A program made the position numbers and the translations under genes. The notes under the pieces were generated by a model that was given only the letters and a program-made list of their open reading frames with translations, did not search any database and was not told the origin of the DNA. From Promethearchaeota archaeon (GTDB lineage: Archaea > Asgardarchaeota > Lokiarchaeia > Sigyniarchaeales > SOKP01): a stretch of 64,000 bases of DNA. Positions 7,224-34,641 of this stretch are shown one piece after another; position 1 is the stretch's first letter, and every line of letters begins with the position of its first letter. The stretch spans positions 1 through 64,000 of the forward strand of contig JBHLOI010000004.1 in the NCBI GenBank assembly GCA_048940645.1, written 5' to 3'.

Positions 7224-8507
7224 ACCATTAATATTTTGGGATTTTAAATATTTAGTAATTTTAATAGCCAGTTTTTCTTGCTGTTTCCATTCTCCATATG
7301 CTAAACCTTTTGAATTTAATTCAGTGATTACTTTTATAATTTTCTTGTTGACTTTTTGAAAAGGTTTCGTAGCAAATAAGGTTTGAGGTAAGGGCATAAA
7401 TGTATGGGTGTGAATTCTTGCTCCCATATCTGATAAATCTTTCATCACCTTTATAGTTAAATCCACATCTTCTTCACTTTCATAAGGTAATCCGAATATG
7501 AAATCCACGTTAGCTTTTAAATCACTTTTGATGGTTAATTCAACCGCTTTATATATATCTTCTACAGTATGACCTCTATTGCATGAATCTAAAAGTTTTT
7601 GGCTTCCTGACTGAGCTCCAATGACAATATTATCATTTGCCGCATATTTTAAAACTAATCCCAAAGTTTCTTTATTCACATGTTCTGGACGGACTTCTGA
7701 AGGAAATGAGCCTAAAAATAATCTTCCATTTGGTTTTATAATATGATTTATTTGTTTTAATAAATCTTCTAACTTAGTAAGATTCAGTGTTTTACCGTCT
7801 AGAGATCCATAAGAGAAAGAATTTGGTGAAATAAATCTTATATCAGTTTTCTCATATTTTTTCATAAACTTCACAGCATTACAAATAGATTCAATGCTTC
7901 TATGTCTTGGATTAGTGCCTAAAAGATAAGGAGTTTGACAAAAATAGCATACGTATGGACATCCTCTCGTTATTTCAATTGCTCCAAACCTAATGTTTTT
8001 CATAGGTAAAGGAGGATATTTATCTAAATCTATGGGTTGCCTTTTTCCATTATAAACGTAGTTATTATCTTTATTAAAGAAAGATATTCCTTTTATTTTA
8101 AAGATATCTTCATCATGCTTAATCTTATTAAGAATATCAACGATAGTTTCCTCGCCTTCACCTACAACAACAAGATCAAAACCCATTTTAAGAGTTCCAA
8201 ATGGATCTCCAGAAGGATGAGGGCCACCAGCTATAAGAAATACTTTTTTTGAGTATTTTCTTCTCAAATTTTTAATTAAATTTTTTATTTCCCATAATTG
8301 AGTGGTAAAAAAAGAAATTCCGACTATTATCCTATCATTATTTTCTATAATCTTTTTTAATTCATCTATTAGATTATCATAACCCCTAATAAAATGAATT
8401 TTGATATCATTTAATAACTCTTCAGTTTCAATTGCTCCGATTAAAGCATTAAAACTATATATATTTTGTTTCTGATAAAATGCAACAAATGCAATTCTCC
8501 TTTGCAA
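7215..8507 (-). CDS. B12-binding domain radical SAM protein (TIGR04013-like)
   Basis: IAGGPHPSG, GEGE, EITRGCPYVCYFCQTP (CxxxCxxC), SEVRPE and GAQSGS motifs. Confidence 0.88.
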   Translation of the reverse strand: MQRRIAFVAFYQKQNIYSFNALIGAIETEELLNDIKIHFIRGYDNLIDELKKIIENNDRIIVGISFFTTQLWEIKNLIKNLRRKYSKKVFLIAGGPHPSGDPFGTLKMGFDLVVVGEGEETIVDILNKIKHDEDIFKIKGISFFNKDNNYVYNGKRQPIDLDKYPPLPMKNIRFGAIEITRGCPYVCYFCQTPYLLGTNPRHRSIESICNAVKFMKKYEKTDIRFISPNSFSYGSLDGKTLNLTKLEDLLKQINHIIKPNGRLFLGSFPSEVRPEHVNKETLGLVLKYAANDNIVIGAQSGSQKLLDSCNRGHTVEDIYKAVELTIKSDLKANVDFIFGLPYESEEDVDLTIKVMKDLSDMGARIHTHTFMPLPQTLFATKPFQKVNKKIIKVITELNSKGLAYGEWKQQEKLAIKITKYLKSQNINGLA

Positions 8508-27771: not shown

Positions 27772-28173
27772 TTATGTAATACTAAATTCATGATTTATAA
27801 TATTTAATTGCTCTTTAAATTCATCCTTCATAAGGCTATAATATGTAAACTTCCCCTTTTTCCAACCCTTTATCAAATTAGCTTTCTCTAATTCTCGTAA
27901 ATGGTGAGATATTGAAGGTTGAGATTTATCTAAGATTGCCTCCAATTCACATACACAACGATCTTTCTCTTTTAACGCGTTTATTATAGTTATTCTTTCT
28001 TTATTTCCCAAAGCATTTAAAAAAGCTAAAATTGAATTTAATTTCTCATCAAATCTTAAATTTTTTCCTAATTGTTGTAAATTTTTAAAATATTTGTCGC
28101 TATCAAAACATTCGTCACAACTACAAAGCATTTCTTTGATTTCAGATTCCCGATCAATTTTTATAAAAATCAC
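27772..28173 (-). CDS. arsR: ArsR/SmtB family metalloregulator
   Basis: ALGNKERI, CVCEL and SQPSISHHLREL motifs; extra N-terminal CSCDEC; divergent from the acr3 operon. Confidence 0.92.
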   Translation of the reverse strand: MIFIKIDRESEIKEMLCSCDECFDSDKYFKNLQQLGKNLRFDEKLNSILAFLNALGNKERITIINALKEKDRCVCELEAILDKSQPSISHHLRELEKANLIKGWKKGKFTYYSLMKDEFKEQLNIINHEFSIT

Positions 28174-28314
28174 CTATTATAGGTAATAACCTTCTTCATT
28201 ATATTAGAAGCTATTAAATTATAAAAATTTTATTCAAATCGAGTCATCTAGATTCACATCGAAATCTTTTTATTTGAAACATTCTATTAATATCTTAAGC
28301 TCTAACCATATAGA

Positions 28315-28328
28315 ATTCATTAATGAAT
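28315..28328. promoter_or_regulatory. Candidate ArsR operator: 14-bp palindrome ATTCATTAATGAAT at the start of the ars/hgc operon
   Basis: Perfect palindrome overlapping the first ATG; AT-rich, so it could be chance. Confidence 0.35.
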
Positions 28329-29075
28329 AAAATGGAAAACAATAAAAAACTAAAGATTGGAATAATTTCAGACGGTAAGTACGGAGATAGAGCATATGAA
28401 AATATAAAAAAGAAATTTGAAACCCGCTGGATACTCCTCCCAGAGATACCACAAAACGTTATATTAGATAATGAGTATAATTTTGAAATTCCTGAATGTG
28501 ACCTTTATATTTCATATATTAGACACCCAGATATAATGCTGCAGTTAGCAGAACTTCAAAAACCATTGATTTTAGGGATACTTCCGGGAATTGGGTTATA
28601 TTTACAAGCCAGAAAAATAAATCCTAAAGTTATATCTGCTCCTACTATGTGTTCATTGGAAAATAATACTGGGATTCCTGAAATTGACCTATTTACTAGT
28701 TTTTTTGGCCGACCTATTTATCAGGTTAATATAAATGAAGATAGGGTTATTAATAGGGTTGAAGTACGCCGTTCTTCACTATGTGGGTCTTCTGAAGCTG
28801 GAGCGAAATACCTACTGAATAAAACTTTCAATAAAGAAAATCTTCAAAATTTTGCTTTAAGTGTTTGTTATGAATGTCGTGCTCCTCGTTTTGGGCATAC
28901 ATGTGATAAAGAAGTAGCGGGAATTATTCATTTGGTTTCAATTTTTGAGAGTATACCTAATGAAATTTCAAATAAATTTGATAAAAATTCGCAATCCTTT
29001 ATTGAAGATATTGGAAAGGAATATAAAAGAAGAAATAAAAATTCAGAGTTATTACTAAAAGAGGTAATATATTAA
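28323..29075 (+). CDS. DUF166 family protein
   Basis: DGKYGDRA, DLYISY..HPD, MCSL, FGRP, V.RSS.CG, CRA and AG.IH motifs. Confidence 0.7.
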   Translation: MNKMENNKKLKIGIISDGKYGDRAYENIKKKFETRWILLPEIPQNVILDNEYNFEIPECDLYISYIRHPDIMLQLAELQKPLILGILPGIGLYLQARKINPKVISAPTMCSLENNTGIPEIDLFTSFFGRPIYQVNINEDRVINRVEVRRSSLCGSSEAGAKYLLNKTFNKENLQNFALSVCYECRAPRFGHTCDKEVAGIIHLVSIFESIPNEISNKFDKNSQSFIEDIGKEYKRRNKNSELLLKEVIY

Positions 29076-29078
29076 ATT

Positions 29079-30158
29079 ATGCAAGAAGGAGAATTAAATG
29101 AAGCTGGAAAGGAAGCTTTAGACACTATCGAAGTTAAGGAGGAAAAGGGTAAAGAAATTAGTTTTTTTGAAAAATTCCTTCCTCTTTGGGTGGCTTTATG
29201 CATCTTTATAGGAATTTTGTTATCACAGATTTTTCCGGGGATAAGTATAGCGATTGAAGCTTTTAAAATTGGTGAGATTTCTATACCAATTGGAATTTGT
29301 TTATTCTTAATGATGTATCCGGCAATGTTAAATCTACAAACTTCTGAATTAAAAAAATTGGGTAGAGATCCTAAGCCAATTATCTTAACAATAATATCTA
29401 ATTGGCTCATTGCTCCTTTTGTGGGTTTAGCAATGGTTAGGTTATTTTTACAAGGAAATCCGCAGTTATCAGTTGCTATAATTTTACTTTCAAGTTCACC
29501 TTGTACTGCTATGGTTCTCGTCTGGGGCTGGATGGCAAAAGGCAATCAAGAACAGAATGTAATAAATACCAGCTTAAATACAATTACAATCATATTTGGT
29601 TATGCTCCTATGGTAACATTATTAACAGGTATTCAAGCCATACCAGTTGATTGGATTCTTCTGTTAATATCAACATTTGTTTTTATCGGGCTTCCTCTAG
29701 TATTTGGAATAGTAAGTAAAAGATTATTAATTTCTTCTAAAGGAGAAAAATGGTTTAATAACACTTATCGACCAATCGTAGGAAAAGTTTCCATAGTAGC
29801 CTTATTAACAACATTAATAGTACTTTTTTCATTGAATGGAAATGTTATGATCAATCATCCGGATTTATTGCTACTTGTTTCAATTCCACTCCTATTAGGA
29901 TTTCTAATCGTAGTTGGTTATAACATTTTAATTACTAAACTTTTCAAGTTGAAGTACAAAGAAGCTGTAATTACTGTCATTATTGGATCTTCTAGCCATT
30001 TTGAAATCGCGATTGCTACTGCTATCGCTATGTATGGAATTGGTTCATTTGCTGCTTTGGGTACAACAATGGGTTTATTTTGGGAGGTTCCAGTAATGTT
30101 ATCGATAGTCTATCTTGGAAGATATCTAAAAAAACGTGGATTTTGGAAATCTGAATAA
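29079..30158 (+). CDS. acr3: ACR3 family arsenite efflux transporter
   Basis: FEKFLPLWV, MMYP, NWLIAPF, PCTAMVLVW, HFEIAIATA and EVPVM motifs. Confidence 0.93.
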   Translation: MQEGELNEAGKEALDTIEVKEEKGKEISFFEKFLPLWVALCIFIGILLSQIFPGISIAIEAFKIGEISIPIGICLFLMMYPAMLNLQTSELKKLGRDPKPIILTIISNWLIAPFVGLAMVRLFLQGNPQLSVAIILLSSSPCTAMVLVWGWMAKGNQEQNVINTSLNTITIIFGYAPMVTLLTGIQAIPVDWILLLISTFVFIGLPLVFGIVSKRLLISSKGEKWFNNTYRPIVGKVSIVALLTTLIVLFSLNGNVMINHPDLLLLVSIPLLLGFLIVVGYNILITKLFKLKYKEAVITVIIGSSSHFEIAIATAIAMYGIGSFAALGTTMGLFWEVPVMLSIVYLGRYLKKRGFWKSE

Positions 30159-30191: not shown

Positions 30192-31856
30192 ATGGCCGTC
30201 GTGTATATGCGAAAATTGGAGCAAGAACCAGAGACGTATGACTCAGAGTTTACTACCCTAACAAAGGGAGTAAATATGGAAGTTCAAGATTGGATTCTTA
30301 ATCGAATAAATTCTTCAGAGTCAATATTAGATGTTGGTTGTGGAACTGGTGCCCTTTCAGCTAAACTTGCGTTGAAAGGAAACGATGTTGTTGCCATTGA
30401 TAATAATTTTCAAATGATTAATTATGCTATGCAAAATTACCCTCAAAAAGAAAATTTACATTTATTATTTCAAATAGGATCGTTCTCTAACCTCCAAGCC
30501 GAGCACCATTCGAAAGACATAATAGTGAGTACATTCATGTTATCAGAATTACGACCATTTGAGCAACAAATTTTCCTTCGAAATGCATGGAAAGCATTAA
30601 AACCAGAGGGGCGATTAATTATAGCTGCAGAGTTTATCCCTTCTGGATTTTGGAAACTAATTTTTAAAATTAAGAGATGGCGGTATAAAAAAAAGCTTAG
30701 AAGACTTCGATTAAGAAGTACTTTTCTATTGAAATGGTTTTTTAATTATCTAGAACCGATAGGATTTAAAATCATTGCTCAAAAAAAATGGAAACATGGT
30801 GCTATTCAGGTAATGGAACTAAAAAAAATAAATTTCACCCAAACTGAGGAGCCTGGTTATTATCGTCCTATACCAAAAAAATTTAAGGGAGTGCGTTCCC
30901 AATTAAGGATTTACCGATGCATTTTTACTGGACAAGTTGATCATGTTCCTATTGAACCAGGAATTTACCAAGCTGGTAAGCCTGATAAAAATTCTCCGAT
31001 TACTGTTACAGCTAATTATGAGTATACTTACATTAAAGTGATGCGAGATTTAAAAGGTATTGATGCATGGGTATTATGTGTGGATTCTAATGGGATTAAT
31101 GTATGGTGTGCCGCTCGTGGTAGCAACTTTGGCAATGCACAACTACTTGAAGCAATAGAAGCAACCGGCATTCAAAATTATACAAATAAAAAAACCTTAA
31201 TACTCCCTCAACTCTCTGCTGGGGGAGTAGCTATTCCAGATTTACCAATAAATTCAGAACAGTTCCCATTTAAAGTAAAATACGGTCCAATTTGGTCGAA
31301 ACATATACCAACCTACTTAAAGAATCAACCTTCTAAAAAACCAGAAAAAATGAGGCTTGCCAAATTTACAATACCTCATCGCATTCGCGCTGGAATAACG
31401 CATACAACATTCTTATTCCGTAAAATATTCATCTTACCTATAATAGCTTTATTAATGCTATTTTTAGGCCTATACATCTTTACAGTTTTTGATAAATTAT
31501 GGTGGATTGGTGAACTGTGTATCTGGATTTTATTCGCAAATGTGATCATATTTTTCTTATTTCCACTTTCTAAATTTACTCAAAAATTTGTAAATAAAGG
31601 ATTTTTCTTTGGATTTATTAATATAGTTATTTTAGGGGGATTGACATGGTTAATTCATCGTTCTATTTTTTATACATTGATTAATTTACCTTTTTTCTTT
31701 TGGATCACTTTCTTTTCAACGATGTCATTTAGTGGCTACACAATGGCAACAAGTCCAAGAAAAATTGAAAATGAATATCCAATTTTTAAAAAATTAAATA
31801 AAATTTTATTAATAATAAGTTTGGTTTCTTTAGCAATTGGAATTATATTTTATTAA
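30192..31856 (+). CDS. hgcA: Class I SAM methyltransferase fused to an HgcA-like corrinoid protein
   Basis: N-terminal ILDVGCGTG; then PG.Y..G.P...SP..VTANY, GINVWCAARG (cap helix with Cys), ILPQLSA, YGP and a C-terminal TM bundle. Confidence 0.85.
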   Translation: MAVVYMRKLEQEPETYDSEFTTLTKGVNMEVQDWILNRINSSESILDVGCGTGALSAKLALKGNDVVAIDNNFQMINYAMQNYPQKENLHLLFQIGSFSNLQAEHHSKDIIVSTFMLSELRPFEQQIFLRNAWKALKPEGRLIIAAEFIPSGFWKLIFKIKRWRYKKKLRRLRLRSTFLLKWFFNYLEPIGFKIIAQKKWKHGAIQVMELKKINFTQTEEPGYYRPIPKKFKGVRSQLRIYRCIFTGQVDHVPIEPGIYQAGKPDKNSPITVTANYEYTYIKVMRDLKGIDAWVLCVDSNGINVWCAARGSNFGNAQLLEAIEATGIQNYTNKKTLILPQLSAGGVAIPDLPINSEQFPFKVKYGPIWSKHIPTYLKNQPSKKPEKMRLAKFTIPHRIRAGITHTTFLFRKIFILPIIALLMLFLGLYIFTVFDKLWWIGELCIWILFANVIIFFLFPLSKFTQKFVNKGFFFGFINIVILGGLTWLIHRSIFYTLINLPFFFWITFFSTMSFSGYTMATSPRKIENEYPIFKKLNKILLIISLVSLAIGIIFY

Positions 31857-31903
31857 AATAATAAAAAAAATTAAAAAGTATAAAAAGATAGGAGGTTATA
31901 AAG

Positions 31904-32218
31904 ATGACAGAAATAGATTTTAAAACTTTTAATTTTACCGAAATCATAAAGAATATTCGAATATTTATTGATCGAGATGCTTGTACTGGATGTGGATTGT
32001 GTGGAGAGATATGTCCTTTTGGATTACCTCAACCTAGCACTAATGGAAAATTTGAAATAACAAACCCAGATCTTTGCACAGAATGTAGCGCTTGTAAAAG
32101 AAATTGTCCAACTCAAGCCATTATCATGCAAGAACAAGCGGGATGTGGATGTTTGTGGAATGTTAGGAATAGAGTAAAAAGCTCAAATCAATCGAATCAA
32201 TCGTGTAATTGTGGGTAA
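31904..32218 (+). CDS. hgcB: HgcB-like 2x[4Fe-4S] ferredoxin
   Basis: CTGCGLCGEICP and CTECSACKRNCP clusters, then GCGC and a C-terminal CNCG tail; immediately after hgcA. Confidence 0.8.
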   Translation: MTEIDFKTFNFTEIIKNIRIFIDRDACTGCGLCGEICPFGLPQPSTNGKFEITNPDLCTECSACKRNCPTQAIIMQEQAGCGCLWNVRNRVKSSNQSNQSCNCG

Positions 32219-32236: not shown

Positions 32237-32509
32237 ATGAAACAAAATAATAAATTAGAAGTTGATATTTACGTTCCATTAGATGCATGTGCCTGTGAAT
32301 GGGATAAGTTTATGAATCGGGTTTTTATAGTTTTAACACCTTATATAAAATACATTAATTATAATACGAAAAATCTTAATTCGGAGGAAGCAAGAAACCT
32401 AGATTTACATGGAAATACAATTGTTGTTGACAATAAGAAAAAGTATACTGCTTCCTATTCATTAAAAAAAGATTTACCCAATTTACTAAGAGAAAAAGGT
32501 TTGATTTAA
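32237..32509 (+). CDS. Small thioredoxin-fold/ArsD-like protein with CxC motif
   Basis: VDIYVPLDACACEW resembles the 'V.DP..CC' start of ArsD-type metallochaperones; context supports it. Confidence 0.55.
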   Translation: MKQNNKLEVDIYVPLDACACEWDKFMNRVFIVLTPYIKYINYNTKNLNSEEARNLDLHGNTIVVDNKKKYTASYSLKKDLPNLLREKGLI

Positions 32510-32539: not shown

Positions 32540-32896
32540 ATTAAAAAAATAGAATTTGAAATTAGTATTCCAATAAAAGGACTCCAGCAAGGTAAAAAAT
32601 ATACACTTAATGTCGAAGATGATACTACCTTCATAGAAACATTAGCATTAGTGGATAAAATCGAGATGATAGAGACCAAGACCAGTATTTTTCCAGTGTA
32701 TGAAGGCTATATTCATAGTTATCTTCAGCTTTTTATAAATCTTGAAGAAGCTTCAATATACGATGATGTTGGAGTGTATGCATATGCGCCTGATGACCAT
32801 GGAATTATGCGAAAATTTAATCCTATTAGGGAAAATATTGAATTTAATCTATATCCTGATAGTTTGATTCAATTACAACCAGATGTAGGATGTTGA
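32540..32896 (+). CDS. Putative beta-grasp (ubiquitin-like) protein ending in Gly-Cys; N-terminus extended beyond the track ORF
   Basis: Frame open upstream of GTG 32651 (IKKIEFEISIPIKGLQQGKKYTLNVEDDTTFIETLALVD); GGGGTGGT RBS before ATT 32540; ends LYPDSLIQLQPDVGC. Confidence 0.6.
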   Translation: MKKIEFEISIPIKGLQQGKKYTLNVEDDTTFIETLALVDKIEMIETKTSIFPVYEGYIHSYLQLFINLEEASIYDDVGVYAYAPDDHGIMRKFNPIRENIEFNLYPDSLIQLQPDVGC

Positions 32897-32917
32897 TGAG
32901 AAAAGGTGAAAGAAAGA

Positions 32918-33001
32918 GTGGATAATGAAACACTCAAAATAAAACTTAGGCAAAAATATGGCAAAAATAATAAATATTTTCTCCATTATTTTCAAATTTA
33001 A
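32918..33001 (+). pseudogene. Possible truncated gene remnant (arsM-like N-terminus)
   Basis: AGGTGA RBS then GTG-DNETLKIKLRQKYGKNN..., stopping after 27 codons; resembles the 'I...VR..YGK' start of arsenite methyltransferases. Confidence 0.3.
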
Positions 33002-33150
33002 TTTTTTGGATGAAATCTTTCAAGAAATAGTAGTGAAAGATTGACAAAGGGATTGCTTCCTATATATTATAAGAATAAAAATTAAAATTATTAATCATCA
33101 TTAAAAAAAAAAGTAAATAATTCTTGAAAATATAAAAGCAACTATTATCA

Positions 33151-33582
33151 ATGGAGAAATCAAAAGTAATTTTTCTTTGCACTGAAAATTCGGTACGTAG
33201 TCAAATGGCAGAAGCATTTCTTAAAAAACAGGCAGGTGAGCATTTTGAAGTATATAGTGCTGGGTTCGATCCTCAACCTATACATCCTTTTACAATAAAA
33301 GTAATGGAAGAATTAGACTATGATTTAAAAGATCAATATTCTAAAGAATTAAAGGAATTCCTAGGAAAAGTACACTTCGAGATTGTTATAACTGTGTGTG
33401 AAAAAGCTGAAAAGACCTGTCCTATTATTCCTGGAGTAAGTACTAGGTTATTTTGGTCATTTGAAGACCCTGCTGCATTTGAAGGAACAAGACAGGAAAA
33501 ACTGGATAAATTTCGACAAGTCAGAGACCAAATTTATGAACAAATTCAAGTTTGGTTAAAAAATAGAGCAATTTTAAAGTAA
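33151..33582 (+). CDS. arsC: Arsenate reductase, LMW-PTPase/thioredoxin-coupled type
   Basis: FLCTENSVRSQMAE, ITVC......CP, W.FEDPA and FR.VRD motifs. Confidence 0.93.
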   Translation: MEKSKVIFLCTENSVRSQMAEAFLKKQAGEHFEVYSAGFDPQPIHPFTIKVMEELDYDLKDQYSKELKEFLGKVHFEIVITVCEKAEKTCPIIPGVSTRLFWSFEDPAAFEGTRQEKLDKFRQVRDQIYEQIQVWLKNRAILK

Positions 33583-33693: not shown

Positions 33694-34641
33694 ATGGATA
33701 TTTTCACTCACTTTATAATCGGAATACTCGCTAGTGTTTATGGCCTTAAATCTTTACCATTTAGCCTTGTAATTTATGCGTCTATAATGTCAGTAATTAG
33801 TGATTTCGATATATTTCTAGCACCATTACGTTTGATTAAAAAGTCAAATTTTTTATCCCATAAAGGATTATCCCATTCATATTTCACTGCTTTGATATTT
33901 TCGTTTTTTACAGCAATATTATTTGCTTTTATTACCAATGAGAATTTCTTGATTGCTTGGCTTATTGGATTTCTTTTTTATAGTCTGCATGTTACACTGG
34001 ATCTAATCACAGCATCAAAAATTCCGATATTCTACCCTTTTTCAAAGAAAAGATATAGATTTTTCATAGATAGAGCTATTAATTTATTTTTAGCTGTAAT
34101 CTCTGGACTTGTTGTTTTATCCTATTTTTTAATGTTTTTTTATTTACCAGAAGTATTCTTTTCAGATTTATATCATTATATTTTTGGATTTTATCTCGTA
34201 TATTTCTCCTATCGATTCATTTCCAAAATCTGGATTCAATTCAAATTACCAGAAAATTCTCTTTATATCCCCGGTATTCTTCCTTTTGTCTACTTTATTT
34301 ATGAAAATATCTCCTTGGAAAAATCTAATTTGTATAAATTTTCAAAAAAAATTCAATTTTTAAACAAAAATTCTCTTATTTTACAATCAGAGATATCTAT
34401 AAACTCCGATGATATGAAGTTCTATGAAAAAGCTATAAAAATCTCGAAAGATTATGTATTTTTTAATAAGTGGGAAGCAGTTATTCCAATTATAGAAAAA
34501 GATTTTGATAAATATACTATACTTTTAATATTAACAGAAAGTTATTTTTCTGGCTCAACCTACTCACTCAAAGTAGTGTTTAATAGAAAAGCAGATACGA
34601 TTGATAATATATCTGACGGCTTTAACTTGTTTAAAGTATAA
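33694..34641 (+). CDS. Membrane metal-dependent hydrolase (YdjM/DUF457-like)
   Basis: MD.FTH, SDFD, HKGLSHS and HVTLD motifs. Confidence 0.8.
   Translation: MDIFTHFIIGILASVYGLKSLPFSLVIYASIMSVISDFDIFLAPLRLIKKSNFLSHKGLSHSYFTALIFSFFTAILFAFITNENFLIAWLIGFLFYSLHVTLDLITASKIPIFYPFSKKRYRFFIDRAINLFLAVISGLVVLSYFLMFFYLPEVFFSDLYHYIFGFYLVYFSYRFISKIWIQFKLPENSLYIPGILPFVYFIYENISLEKSNLYKFSKKIQFLNKNSLILQSEISINSDDMKFYEKAIKISKDYVFFNKWEAVIPIIEKDFDKYTILLILTESYFSGSTYSLKVVFNRKADTIDNISDGFNLFKV

Follow-up and report, generated by a model that had tools for sequence, protein, structure and literature searches.

A Methyltransferase Fused to an HgcA-Like Corrinoid Protein

A 64,000-nucleotide stretch of contig JBHLOI010000004.1 (positions 1 to 64,000; hereafter, the window) from a Promethearchaeota archaeon (assembly GCA_048940645.1) encodes a protein that joins a class I S-adenosylmethionine (SAM)-dependent methyltransferase (MTase) to a corrinoid-binding domain and a transmembrane (TM) bundle resembling those of HgcA. 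The gene lies in an operon with arsenic resistance (ars) genes and is followed by a gene for a ferredoxin that resembles HgcB (Table 1). It starts with ATG behind a GGTGA-like ribosome-binding site, in a window of low G+C content (~30%). An initial annotation, made from the letters and their open reading frames (ORFs), had described a single ORF with the MTase motif DVGCGTG, an HgcA-like domain, and a TM bundle. Pfam, NCBIfam, and an AlphaFold2 (AF2) model agree exactly with that description, and the coordinates that it gave for the cap helix NVWCAARG, with the cobalt-ligating Cys retained, are also exact.

Profile searches and structure prediction define the domains of the fusion consistently. 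In Pfam, Methyltransf_25 matches aa 45-140 (E 3.8e-16), and CdhD matches aa 238-343 (E 6.5e-16). A profile search of PDB sequences aligns aa 242-378 with the C-terminal domain of the large subunit of the corrinoid iron-sulfur protein (CFeSP; 2h9a_A and 4djd_C). The AF2 model, built on 73 homologues, is confident as a single body (pLDDT 91.4, pTM 0.88) and shows a Rossmann-type MTase, a linker helix, an alpha/beta corrinoid domain, and five long C-terminal helices (residues 394-430, 437-462, 466-489, 492-516, and 522-553). The top Foldseek match of this model in the PDB is an HgcAB model (9a0b_A, TM score 0.63 on the target), and the other matches are small-molecule class I SAM MTases. The AF2 model, the Foldseek search, and the CFeSP-domain matches agree on the arrangement characteristic of HgcA, a corrinoid-binding domain followed by five TM helices.

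Among 73 fusions, E10, G51, D70, A79, E119, and E147 of the MTase domain are invariant, and at least 90% retain G49 and G53. The latter two belong to motif I (aa 47-53, nt 30330-30350), which also contains the only conserved cysteine of the domain, Cys50. In the cap helix, N303, V304, and C306 are invariant, and W305, A307, and A308 are retained in at least 90%. The linker is conserved as well, with a near-invariant Cys243.

The fusion is real and old. An uninterrupted full-length frame occurs in 144 of 400 scanned genomes of the Asgard phylum, single-contig genomes among them; within the family to which the window belongs, the count is 97 of 134 genomes (72%). At 32-38% identity, copies also occur in two remote Asgard families. 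Orthologues are further present in a sequence titled Promethearchaeum sp. (L029, 54% identity), where arsR-acr3 precedes the gene, and in a 4.3-Mb single-contig genome from the same order (G143, 55%). Full-length fusion proteins at 64-91% identity number more than 120; they derive from numerous assemblies, each labelled Asgard (Promethearchaeota or relatives), and their NCBI product name is only "methyltransferase domain-containing protein." In a library of cluster representatives, full-length fusions extend down to 26-33% identity, with remote loci in Thorarchaeota, Chloroflexota/Anaerolineae, Poribacteria, and others. The initial annotation had allowed for an assembly artefact. The intact frame in the 144 genomes and the independent origin of the more than 120 proteins rule out an assembly or gene-calling error; the conserved linker and the confident single-chain model also speak against this explanation, whose probability is negligible.

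Two sequences in this collection are unusual. One remote Asgard copy (G326:C95:2174-3928) contains a single in-frame TGA, which could be a selenocysteine (Sec) variant or an error. A sequence titled Candidatus Nanopelagicaceae bacterium (L015; DATKTW010000069.1) contains the Asgard SMC-arsR-acr3-fusion block in full (58-72% identity) and is very likely mis-binned.

The modules of this system are joined differently in related loci. NCBIfam already defines the family CpaM ("corrinoid protein-associated methyltransferase," NF043040, a hypothetical equivalog) and the family HgcAB-like (NF043039), the "fused HgcAB" clade found, for example, in Pyrococcus furiosus. CpaM and HgcAB-like together comprise the same three modules as the window locus, but there the MTase is separate and the corrinoid protein is fused to the ferredoxin. 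In the window and the 144 Asgard genomes, the corrinoid protein is instead joined to the MTase, and the ferredoxin has its own gene. The split form also occurs elsewhere in the same genome, where CpaM lies directly upstream of an HgcAB-like fusion on contig C17 (7378-9167; L002). Both proteins score above their cut-offs (243 bits against 180 for CpaM; 371 bits against 285 for HgcAB-like). Unlike the window fusion, which is part of an ars operon and belongs to its own clade, the C17 pair has no ars neighbours. A second locus (L051) has the same split form with CpaM adjoining HgcAB-like, and two representatives (P0144 and P0160) contain all three modules in a single chain that exceeds both the CpaM and the HgcAB-like cut-offs.

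These arrangements link the three modules. Since split and triple-fused forms exist, the MTase, the corrinoid protein, and the ferredoxin are parts of one machine. In a Pfam tally of 144 ORFs neighbouring 21 remote fusions, a 4Fe-4S ferredoxin is the sole recurrent partner; thus, the constant unit consists of the MTase, the HgcA-like protein, and the ferredoxin. Judged by sequence, two paralogous SAM-corrinoid-ferredoxin systems, the window fusion and the C17 pair, coexist in this genome.

The ferredoxin encoded after the fusion has two CX2CX2CX3CP motifs, followed by GCGC and a terminal CNCG. The initial annotation had recognized this two-cluster protein and its additional cysteines, and HgcB is indeed its best NCBIfam family. 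In Asgard homologues, the second cluster is followed by GCGCLW, and the C-terminal Cys pair reads CCG in most, CNCG in the window, or CNCS. In canonical HgcB, the corresponding positions read GVGCA and a terminal CC; the window ferredoxin thus has GCGC at the site of a single HgcB cysteine. For HgcB, C73 and the pair of cysteines at the C terminus are reported to be needed for mercury methylation. All of these cysteine features are present in modified form, while the score lies below the HgcB cut-off.

Relationship to the HgcA, HgcAB-Like, and CpaM Families

The fusion scores below the cut-off of each NCBIfam family to which it is related. The HgcA model (NF040863) matches aa 253-547 with 168.2 bits against a cut-off of 275, whereas the canonical HgcA representatives P0164 and P0167 reach 429 and 389 bits. 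The HgcAB-like model matches aa 252-501 with 177.2 bits (cut-off 285) and is covered only from positions 14 to 249 of 350; the ferredoxin is a separate gene here. For the MTase domain, CpaM is by far the best family, matching aa 3-211 over 209 of 216 profile positions with 140.7 bits (cut-off 180), and the next family, UbiG, scores 52 bits. Other members of the group score higher with CpaM, including the remote fusion P0131 (211 bits) and the triple fusions (218-264 bits). Adjacency or fusion to an HgcA-like corrinoid protein, as expected of CpaM, takes the form of an in-frame fusion in the window. Additionally, the cap helix ends in RG, GG, or GA in MTase-linked forms, whereas nearly all standalone HgcA representatives have NVWCAAGK.

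Phylogenetic analysis places the window protein apart from both named HgcA groups. A tree of 82 corrinoid/TM domains, with the CdhE of the same genome (contig C116) as root and with SH-aLRT supports, groups canonical HgcA in one clade (100) that excludes the window protein and HgcAB-like forms in a separate clade (87). The window protein belongs to a third clade composed of fusions (99). Approximately unbiased (AU) tests were performed with IQ-TREE (LG+F+G4, 56 rows). A topology that forces the fusion clade to nest within canonical HgcA is rejected (delta lnL 134, p-AU 0.002). Neither a sister relationship to canonical HgcA (p-AU 0.56) nor one to HgcAB-like (p-AU 0.38) is rejected, and the same is true for the monophyly of all MTase-linked forms (p-AU 0.46). 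The 82-domain tree, a quick reconstruction, suggests that canonical HgcA may be nested within MTase-linked forms, which would make the MTase ancestral; the AU tests are compatible with alternatives.

Score cut-offs, cap-helix motif, and AU test together rule out that the fusion is a canonical HgcA. The initial annotation had named the genes hgcA and hgcB and proposed profile scores and phylogeny as a check. Homology to the HgcA family is upheld, but the names are not: the HgcA, HgcAB-like, and CpaM scores fall short, the cap helix ends in RG and not GK, and the protein belongs to a clade distinct from canonical HgcA and HgcAB-like.

Comparison with characterized systems clarifies what the window protein shares with each. 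HgcA and HgcB of Pseudodesulfovibrio mercurii ND132 also have a Cys-bearing cap helix, five TM helices, and a ferredoxin with extra cysteines, and arsR, acr3, and arsC often neighbour hgcAB, as they do the fusion. However, HgcA lacks the N-terminal MTase domain and has NVWCAAGK in place of NVWCAARG. The CFeSP large subunit (AcsC/CdhE) of the Wood-Ljungdahl pathway has a homologous corrinoid domain and an Fe-S partner for reduction, but it lacks a TM domain, a Cys lower ligand, and a SAM MTase, and its methyl donor is a methyl-pterin. ArsM, like the fusion, is a SAM-dependent class I MTase found in ars operons. The MTase domain lacks the conserved As(III)-binding cysteines of ArsM and is therefore not an ArsM in disguise; the fusion scores only 35.8 bits with the ArsM model (NF008823, cut-off 263), and its methyl group would travel via cobalt.

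Part of this system is covered by earlier work. Asgard sequences fall in the fused-HgcAB subtree of Lin et al. (2023), who recall that the fused HgcAB of P. furiosus does not methylate mercury. A list of Asgard ars genes does not mention the fusion gene (Zhang et al., 2023), and literature searches found no paper on CpaM or on an MTase-HgcA fusion. The MTase-HgcA-like fusion variant is new here, whereas SAM as the HgcAB donor, the ars-hgcAB linkage, and the CpaM family name were already known.

The Arsenic Operon and Its Predicted Cys/Sec Proteins

The initial annotation saw the neighbouring ferredoxin but missed the surrounding arsR-acr3-arsC operon. The genes for the DUF166 protein, ACR3, the fusion, the HgcB-like ferredoxin, the CxC protein, and the Cys-Sec-Sec protein lie on one strand with gaps of 3-47 bp (33 bp between acr3 and the fusion gene), with arsR divergent before them and arsC after them. 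An ArsR-type repressor, an arsenite pump, and an arsenate reductase are thus encoded together, as in an ars operon. ArsR scores above its cut-offs, while ACR3 falls slightly, and ArsC clearly, below the equivalog cut-offs (Table 1).

Table 1. Features of the fusion locus, with positions in the window.
Feature	Position	Strand	Remarks
ArsR/SmtB-type regulator, divergent from operon	27772..28173	-	Pfam HTH_5 58.2 bits (cut-off 22); NCBIfam HTH_metalloreg 78.3 bits (cut-off 55)
DUF166 protein, first operon gene	28323..29075	+	Pfam DUF166 108.3 bits
ACR3-type arsenite efflux permease	29079..30158	+	TIGR00832 274.7 bits (cut-off 282.8), full length
Fusion gene (CpaM-like SAM MTase, HgcA-like corrinoid domain, 5-TM domain)	30192..31856	+	554 aa
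Class I SAM MTase domain	30192..30866	+	aa 1-225; motif I, DVGCGTG
Corrinoid-binding domain, homologous to C-terminal domain of CFeSP large subunit	30903..31331	+	aa 238-380
Cap-helix motif NVWCAARG	31098..31121	+	aa 303-310; presumed Co-ligating Cys306
Membrane domain, five predicted TM helices	31371..31853	+	aa 394-553; AF2 model and hydropathy scan
HgcB-like 2x[4Fe-4S] ferredoxin	31904..32218	+	best match NCBIfam HgcB NF040864, 56.3 bits (cut-off 99)
CxC protein, conserved D-A-C-x-C-x-W	32237..32509	+	90 aa; no Pfam/NCBIfam match
Predicted Cys-Sec-Sec protein, Gly-Cys-Sec-Sec motif	32540..33001	+	153 aa; probable ATT start; TGA TGA 32894-32899
SECIS-like hairpin	33008..33046	+	ATGA 33010-33013; stem 33015-33022 / 33034-33041; GA 33043-33044
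LMW-phosphatase-type (thioredoxin-coupled) ArsC-like arsenate reductase	33151..33582	+	Pfam LMWPc 71.1 bits; TIGR02691 124.9 bits (cut-off 174.3)

The individual ars proteins retain characteristic cysteines. ArsR has a CVC motif in its recognition region and an N-terminal CSCDEC, and the ArsC-like protein has the catalytic CX5R(S) at C10 and a Cys pair at C83/C90. A survey of cold-seep metagenome-assembled genomes reported Asgard lineages without arsC1/arsC2 (PMC10060404); the score of the window ArsC below the TIGR02691 cut-off may explain why it was missed. The DUF166 protein reaches 49 bits with the DfsP model (cut-off 200). DUF166 occurs in about half of the related loci and also adjoins the fusion where acr3 is missing (L013 and L030). 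The Pfam and NCBIfam searches did not reveal any mer gene in the operon. In the interval 28150-28340, which was searched for a palindromic ArsR operator, only AT-rich chance repeats were found, and an Rfam scan of the window found no riboswitch or SECIS family.

The gene order is kept in approximately 17 of 20 close loci, and ArsR is at the same position in most related loci. Locus L041 (the same as L023, isolate LW40_45) has an extra small MTase-like ORF (7280-7678) between its acr3 and fusion genes, with 30% identity to aa 17-145 of the fusion. In one locus labelled Promethearchaeum, arsR, acr3, thioredoxin, and DsbD precede the fusion. Independent support for the ars linkage comes from Thorarchaeota, where fusions at 31% identity have different surroundings and an ArsR with an ACVCE motif is encoded directly upstream in three of four. 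A link to arsenic genes also exists for canonical hgcAB, as approximately 11 of the approximately 52 loci sampled adjoin acr3 or arsC, which reproduces the observation of McDaniel et al. (2020; PMC7438021); the linkage was likewise described by Gionfriddo et al. (2022). A YdjM-like membrane protein (~315 aa) is encoded within a few kb of both HgcA-like loci of the genome (window 33694-34641; C17:4865-5809), and relatives also keep its gene on the downstream side of the ars operon.

Two small proteins are encoded between the ferredoxin and ArsC. The CxC gene is conserved downstream of the hgcB-like gene in related loci; in L030, it adjoins an ArsR-like gene away from the fusion. The D-A-C-x-C-x-W motif is invariant in the family, often together with a third Cys. 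The CxC protein may have a thioredoxin fold and possibly act as a metalloid carrier, a lead suggested by the Atlas (Thioredoxin_3, 0.88-0.89).

The second small protein is very probably a 153-aa Cys-Sec-Sec protein. A plain ORF list miscalls its gene as 32651-32896, and the true ORF is longer at both ends. The N-terminal extension is conserved, with ATT 32540 aligning with ATG in L023/L041. In 11 of 11 loci, TGA TGA follows Gly-Cys, and the next 33 codons, up to the stop at 32999-33001, are conserved as protein. The SECIS-like hairpin located 3' of the stop is conserved in the same number of loci; two of its eight pairs have compensatory changes, and it matches no Rfam family. The genome encodes tRNA-Sec directly before SepSecS (C101:14409-15873), as well as a SelD that itself has an in-frame TGA (C76:31444-32298); thus, the organism has the capacity to decode Sec. 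A conserved in-frame TGA, coding conservation behind it, a SECIS-like element, and the Sec machinery, the marks of a selenoprotein gene, are therefore all present. The AF2 model of the protein (pLDDT 85.6) has a beta-grasp-like N-terminal part, and Foldseek gives weak matches to SAMP1 and other ubiquitin-like folds. Neither Pfam nor NCBIfam contains a match.

A Proposed Methyl Relay and Its Alternatives

The features of the operon are best explained by a self-contained methyl relay at the membrane, from SAM to cobalt to a soft metal(loid), that would be induced together with arsenic detoxification. The position of the fusion and ferredoxin genes inside an arsR-acr3-arsC operon makes As(III) or Sb(III) a likelier acceptor than mercury, and the relay with As(III)/Sb(III) as likeliest acceptor is plausible, if somewhat short of probable. 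In this proposal, ArsR would free the operon once a soft metal(loid) binds its cysteines. ArsC would reduce arsenate, and ACR3 would export arsenite. In the HgcA-like domain, the ferredoxin would reduce the corrinoid to Co(I), and the CpaM-like domain would bind SAM and methylate Co(I), with Cys306 as the lower ligand by analogy with HgcAB chemistry. A metal(loid) bound to thiols or selenols, with As(III) and Sb(III) the likeliest candidates, would then receive the methyl group. Either the ferredoxin, through its GCGC/CNCG cysteines, or the CxC and Cys-Sec-Sec proteins could present this substrate; the two small proteins are probably part of the relay together with the fusion and the ferredoxin. 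The product could exit via the TM domain or ACR3.

The loading role of the CpaM-like domain is argued by analogy, because SAM is the donor to the cobalamin of HgcAB. Purified HgcAB takes its methyl group from SAM via a methyl-cob(III)alamin with Cys ligation (Zheng et al., 2024; PMC11588087). The initial annotation had interpreted the fusion as a "Rosetta-stone" link that identifies a SAM-dependent enzyme as methyl donor. The split and triple-fused forms do tie the modules together, but the role of SAM was already published; the fusion therefore agrees with that work and does not reveal it. An arsenic-linked native function of hgcAB has been raised by Gionfriddo et al. (bioRxiv 10.1101/2022.10.17.512643), who found that ND132 hgcAB is controlled by an ArsR responsive to arsenic and S-adenosylhomocysteine.

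Several observations weigh against the arsenic-linked relay. To our knowledge, no activity has been reported for any MTase-linked HgcA paralogue. The ND132 hgcAB knockout shows no clear loss of arsenic resistance (bioRxiv 10.1101/2022.10.17.512643). Purified HgcAB uses SAM without any extra MTase, so the fused domain could serve another purpose (PMC11588087). The genome already encodes a canonical ArsM on contig C6 (356 bits, cut-off 263), so a second arsenic methylase is not needed. The SMC genes upstream of the operon are also conserved, and part of the synteny thus reflects vertical inheritance. Finally, the ars link is restricted to certain lineages. In a sister Asgard subclade at 62-65% identity, the fusion lies beside a MarR-type regulator and FMN reductases and not ars genes, and the neighbour tally found no ars genes at the Chloroflexota and Poribacteria fusion loci.

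Two simple ideas about the arsenic connection were rejected. A universal ars context for MTase-HgcA fusions is ruled out by the neighbours of the 21 remote fusions and by the MarR/FMN-reductase subclade. The fusion is also not a replacement for a missing ArsM, since ArsM is present on C6. The C6 gene lies outside the ars operon of the window, and it is preceded by a gene for a 104-aa Cys-rich protein with an AbrB/SpoVT-like core, possibly the regulator of ArsM (C6:6651-7878; L104).

Across phyla, only the MTase, the HgcA-like protein, and the ferredoxin are constant, and the context varies by clade (MarR and FMN reductase in one, thioredoxin and DsbD in another). This pattern would suit a SAM-loaded corrinoid MTase for a different acceptor, such as Se, Te, Bi, a thiol, a selenol, or a halomethane-type compound, or a corrinoid reductive enzyme, with the ars placement a secondary event in one Asgard lineage. 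The Cys-Sec-Sec protein hints at selenium chemistry, and a 2026 preprint reported CCl4 dechlorination by HgcAB. However, ars linkage recurs in distant lineages and with canonical hgcAB, and a fused SAM MTase suits methyl transfer, not dehalogenation. Such a different acceptor is on balance unlikely, although it merits serious consideration. A function for the MTase domain outside the catalytic cycle is considerably less probable. In that case, the domain would be a repair module that re-methylates oxidised Co(II) with SAM and ferredoxin electrons, while the catalytic methyl donor would be another compound. Methionine synthase (MetH) is a functional precedent for corrinoid repair, the ferredoxin is always present, and canonical HgcAB works without such a domain. 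However, the MetH activation domain is not a class I MTase and so differs in class from the fused domain. No pterin- or methylamine-type MTase is found in the operon or recurs near remote fusions, and in HgcAB, SAM is the catalytic donor.

A further possibility is that the fusion is a true mercury methylase, an HgcAB variant with its methyl-loading domain attached. Fold and domain order match HgcA, the cobalt-ligating Cys is retained, and the ferredoxin keeps equivalents of HgcB C73 and of the C-terminal Cys pair. A sister placement to canonical HgcA is compatible with the AU test, and the N-terminal Cys cluster and CVC motif of ArsR could also bind Hg, Cd, or Pb, so that the ars neighbours would reflect only shared regulation by a sensor of thiophilic metals. 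These similarities are outweighed by the scores below the HgcA and HgcB cut-offs, the position outside the canonical clade, and a cap helix that differs at two sites where canonical HgcA does not vary. Among non-canonical relatives, the only one tested, the fused HgcAB of P. furiosus, is reported not to methylate Hg, and the operon has acr3 and arsC but no mer genes. Mercury methylation by the window protein is thus improbable, though somewhat less so than a repair function of its MTase domain.

A more specific form of the As(III)/Sb(III) relay extends it to the origin of the family. The window system might be a corrinoid-dependent, ArsM-independent As(III)/Sb(III) methyltransferase in which SAM loads cobalt via the fused domain and the metalloid is held by cysteines and two selenocysteines. 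The HgcA family might originally have served such MTase-coupled metalloid methylation; canonical HgcAB would then have gained mercury methylation later, as a side activity in a lineage without the loading domain, which it had lost. This scenario is speculative and, taken as a whole, rather unlikely.

The native function of the HgcA family and the frequent adjacency of hgcAB and arsenic genes are questions for the biogeochemistry of both mercury and arsenic. In the window, one gene combines a SAM-using step with the corrinoid protein, and it lies between the genes for an arsenite pump and an arsenate reductase. This arrangement supports, independently and at the genomic level, the view that the HgcA family obtains its methyl group from SAM. 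It also offers a testable hypothesis of a B12-dependent route of metalloid methylation, aided by a Cys-Sec-Sec protein. If the acceptor is arsenic, surveys that score Asgard "hgcA-like" genes as mercury methylators would need correction, and anoxic sediments would hold an uncounted guild of arsenic-methylating organisms.

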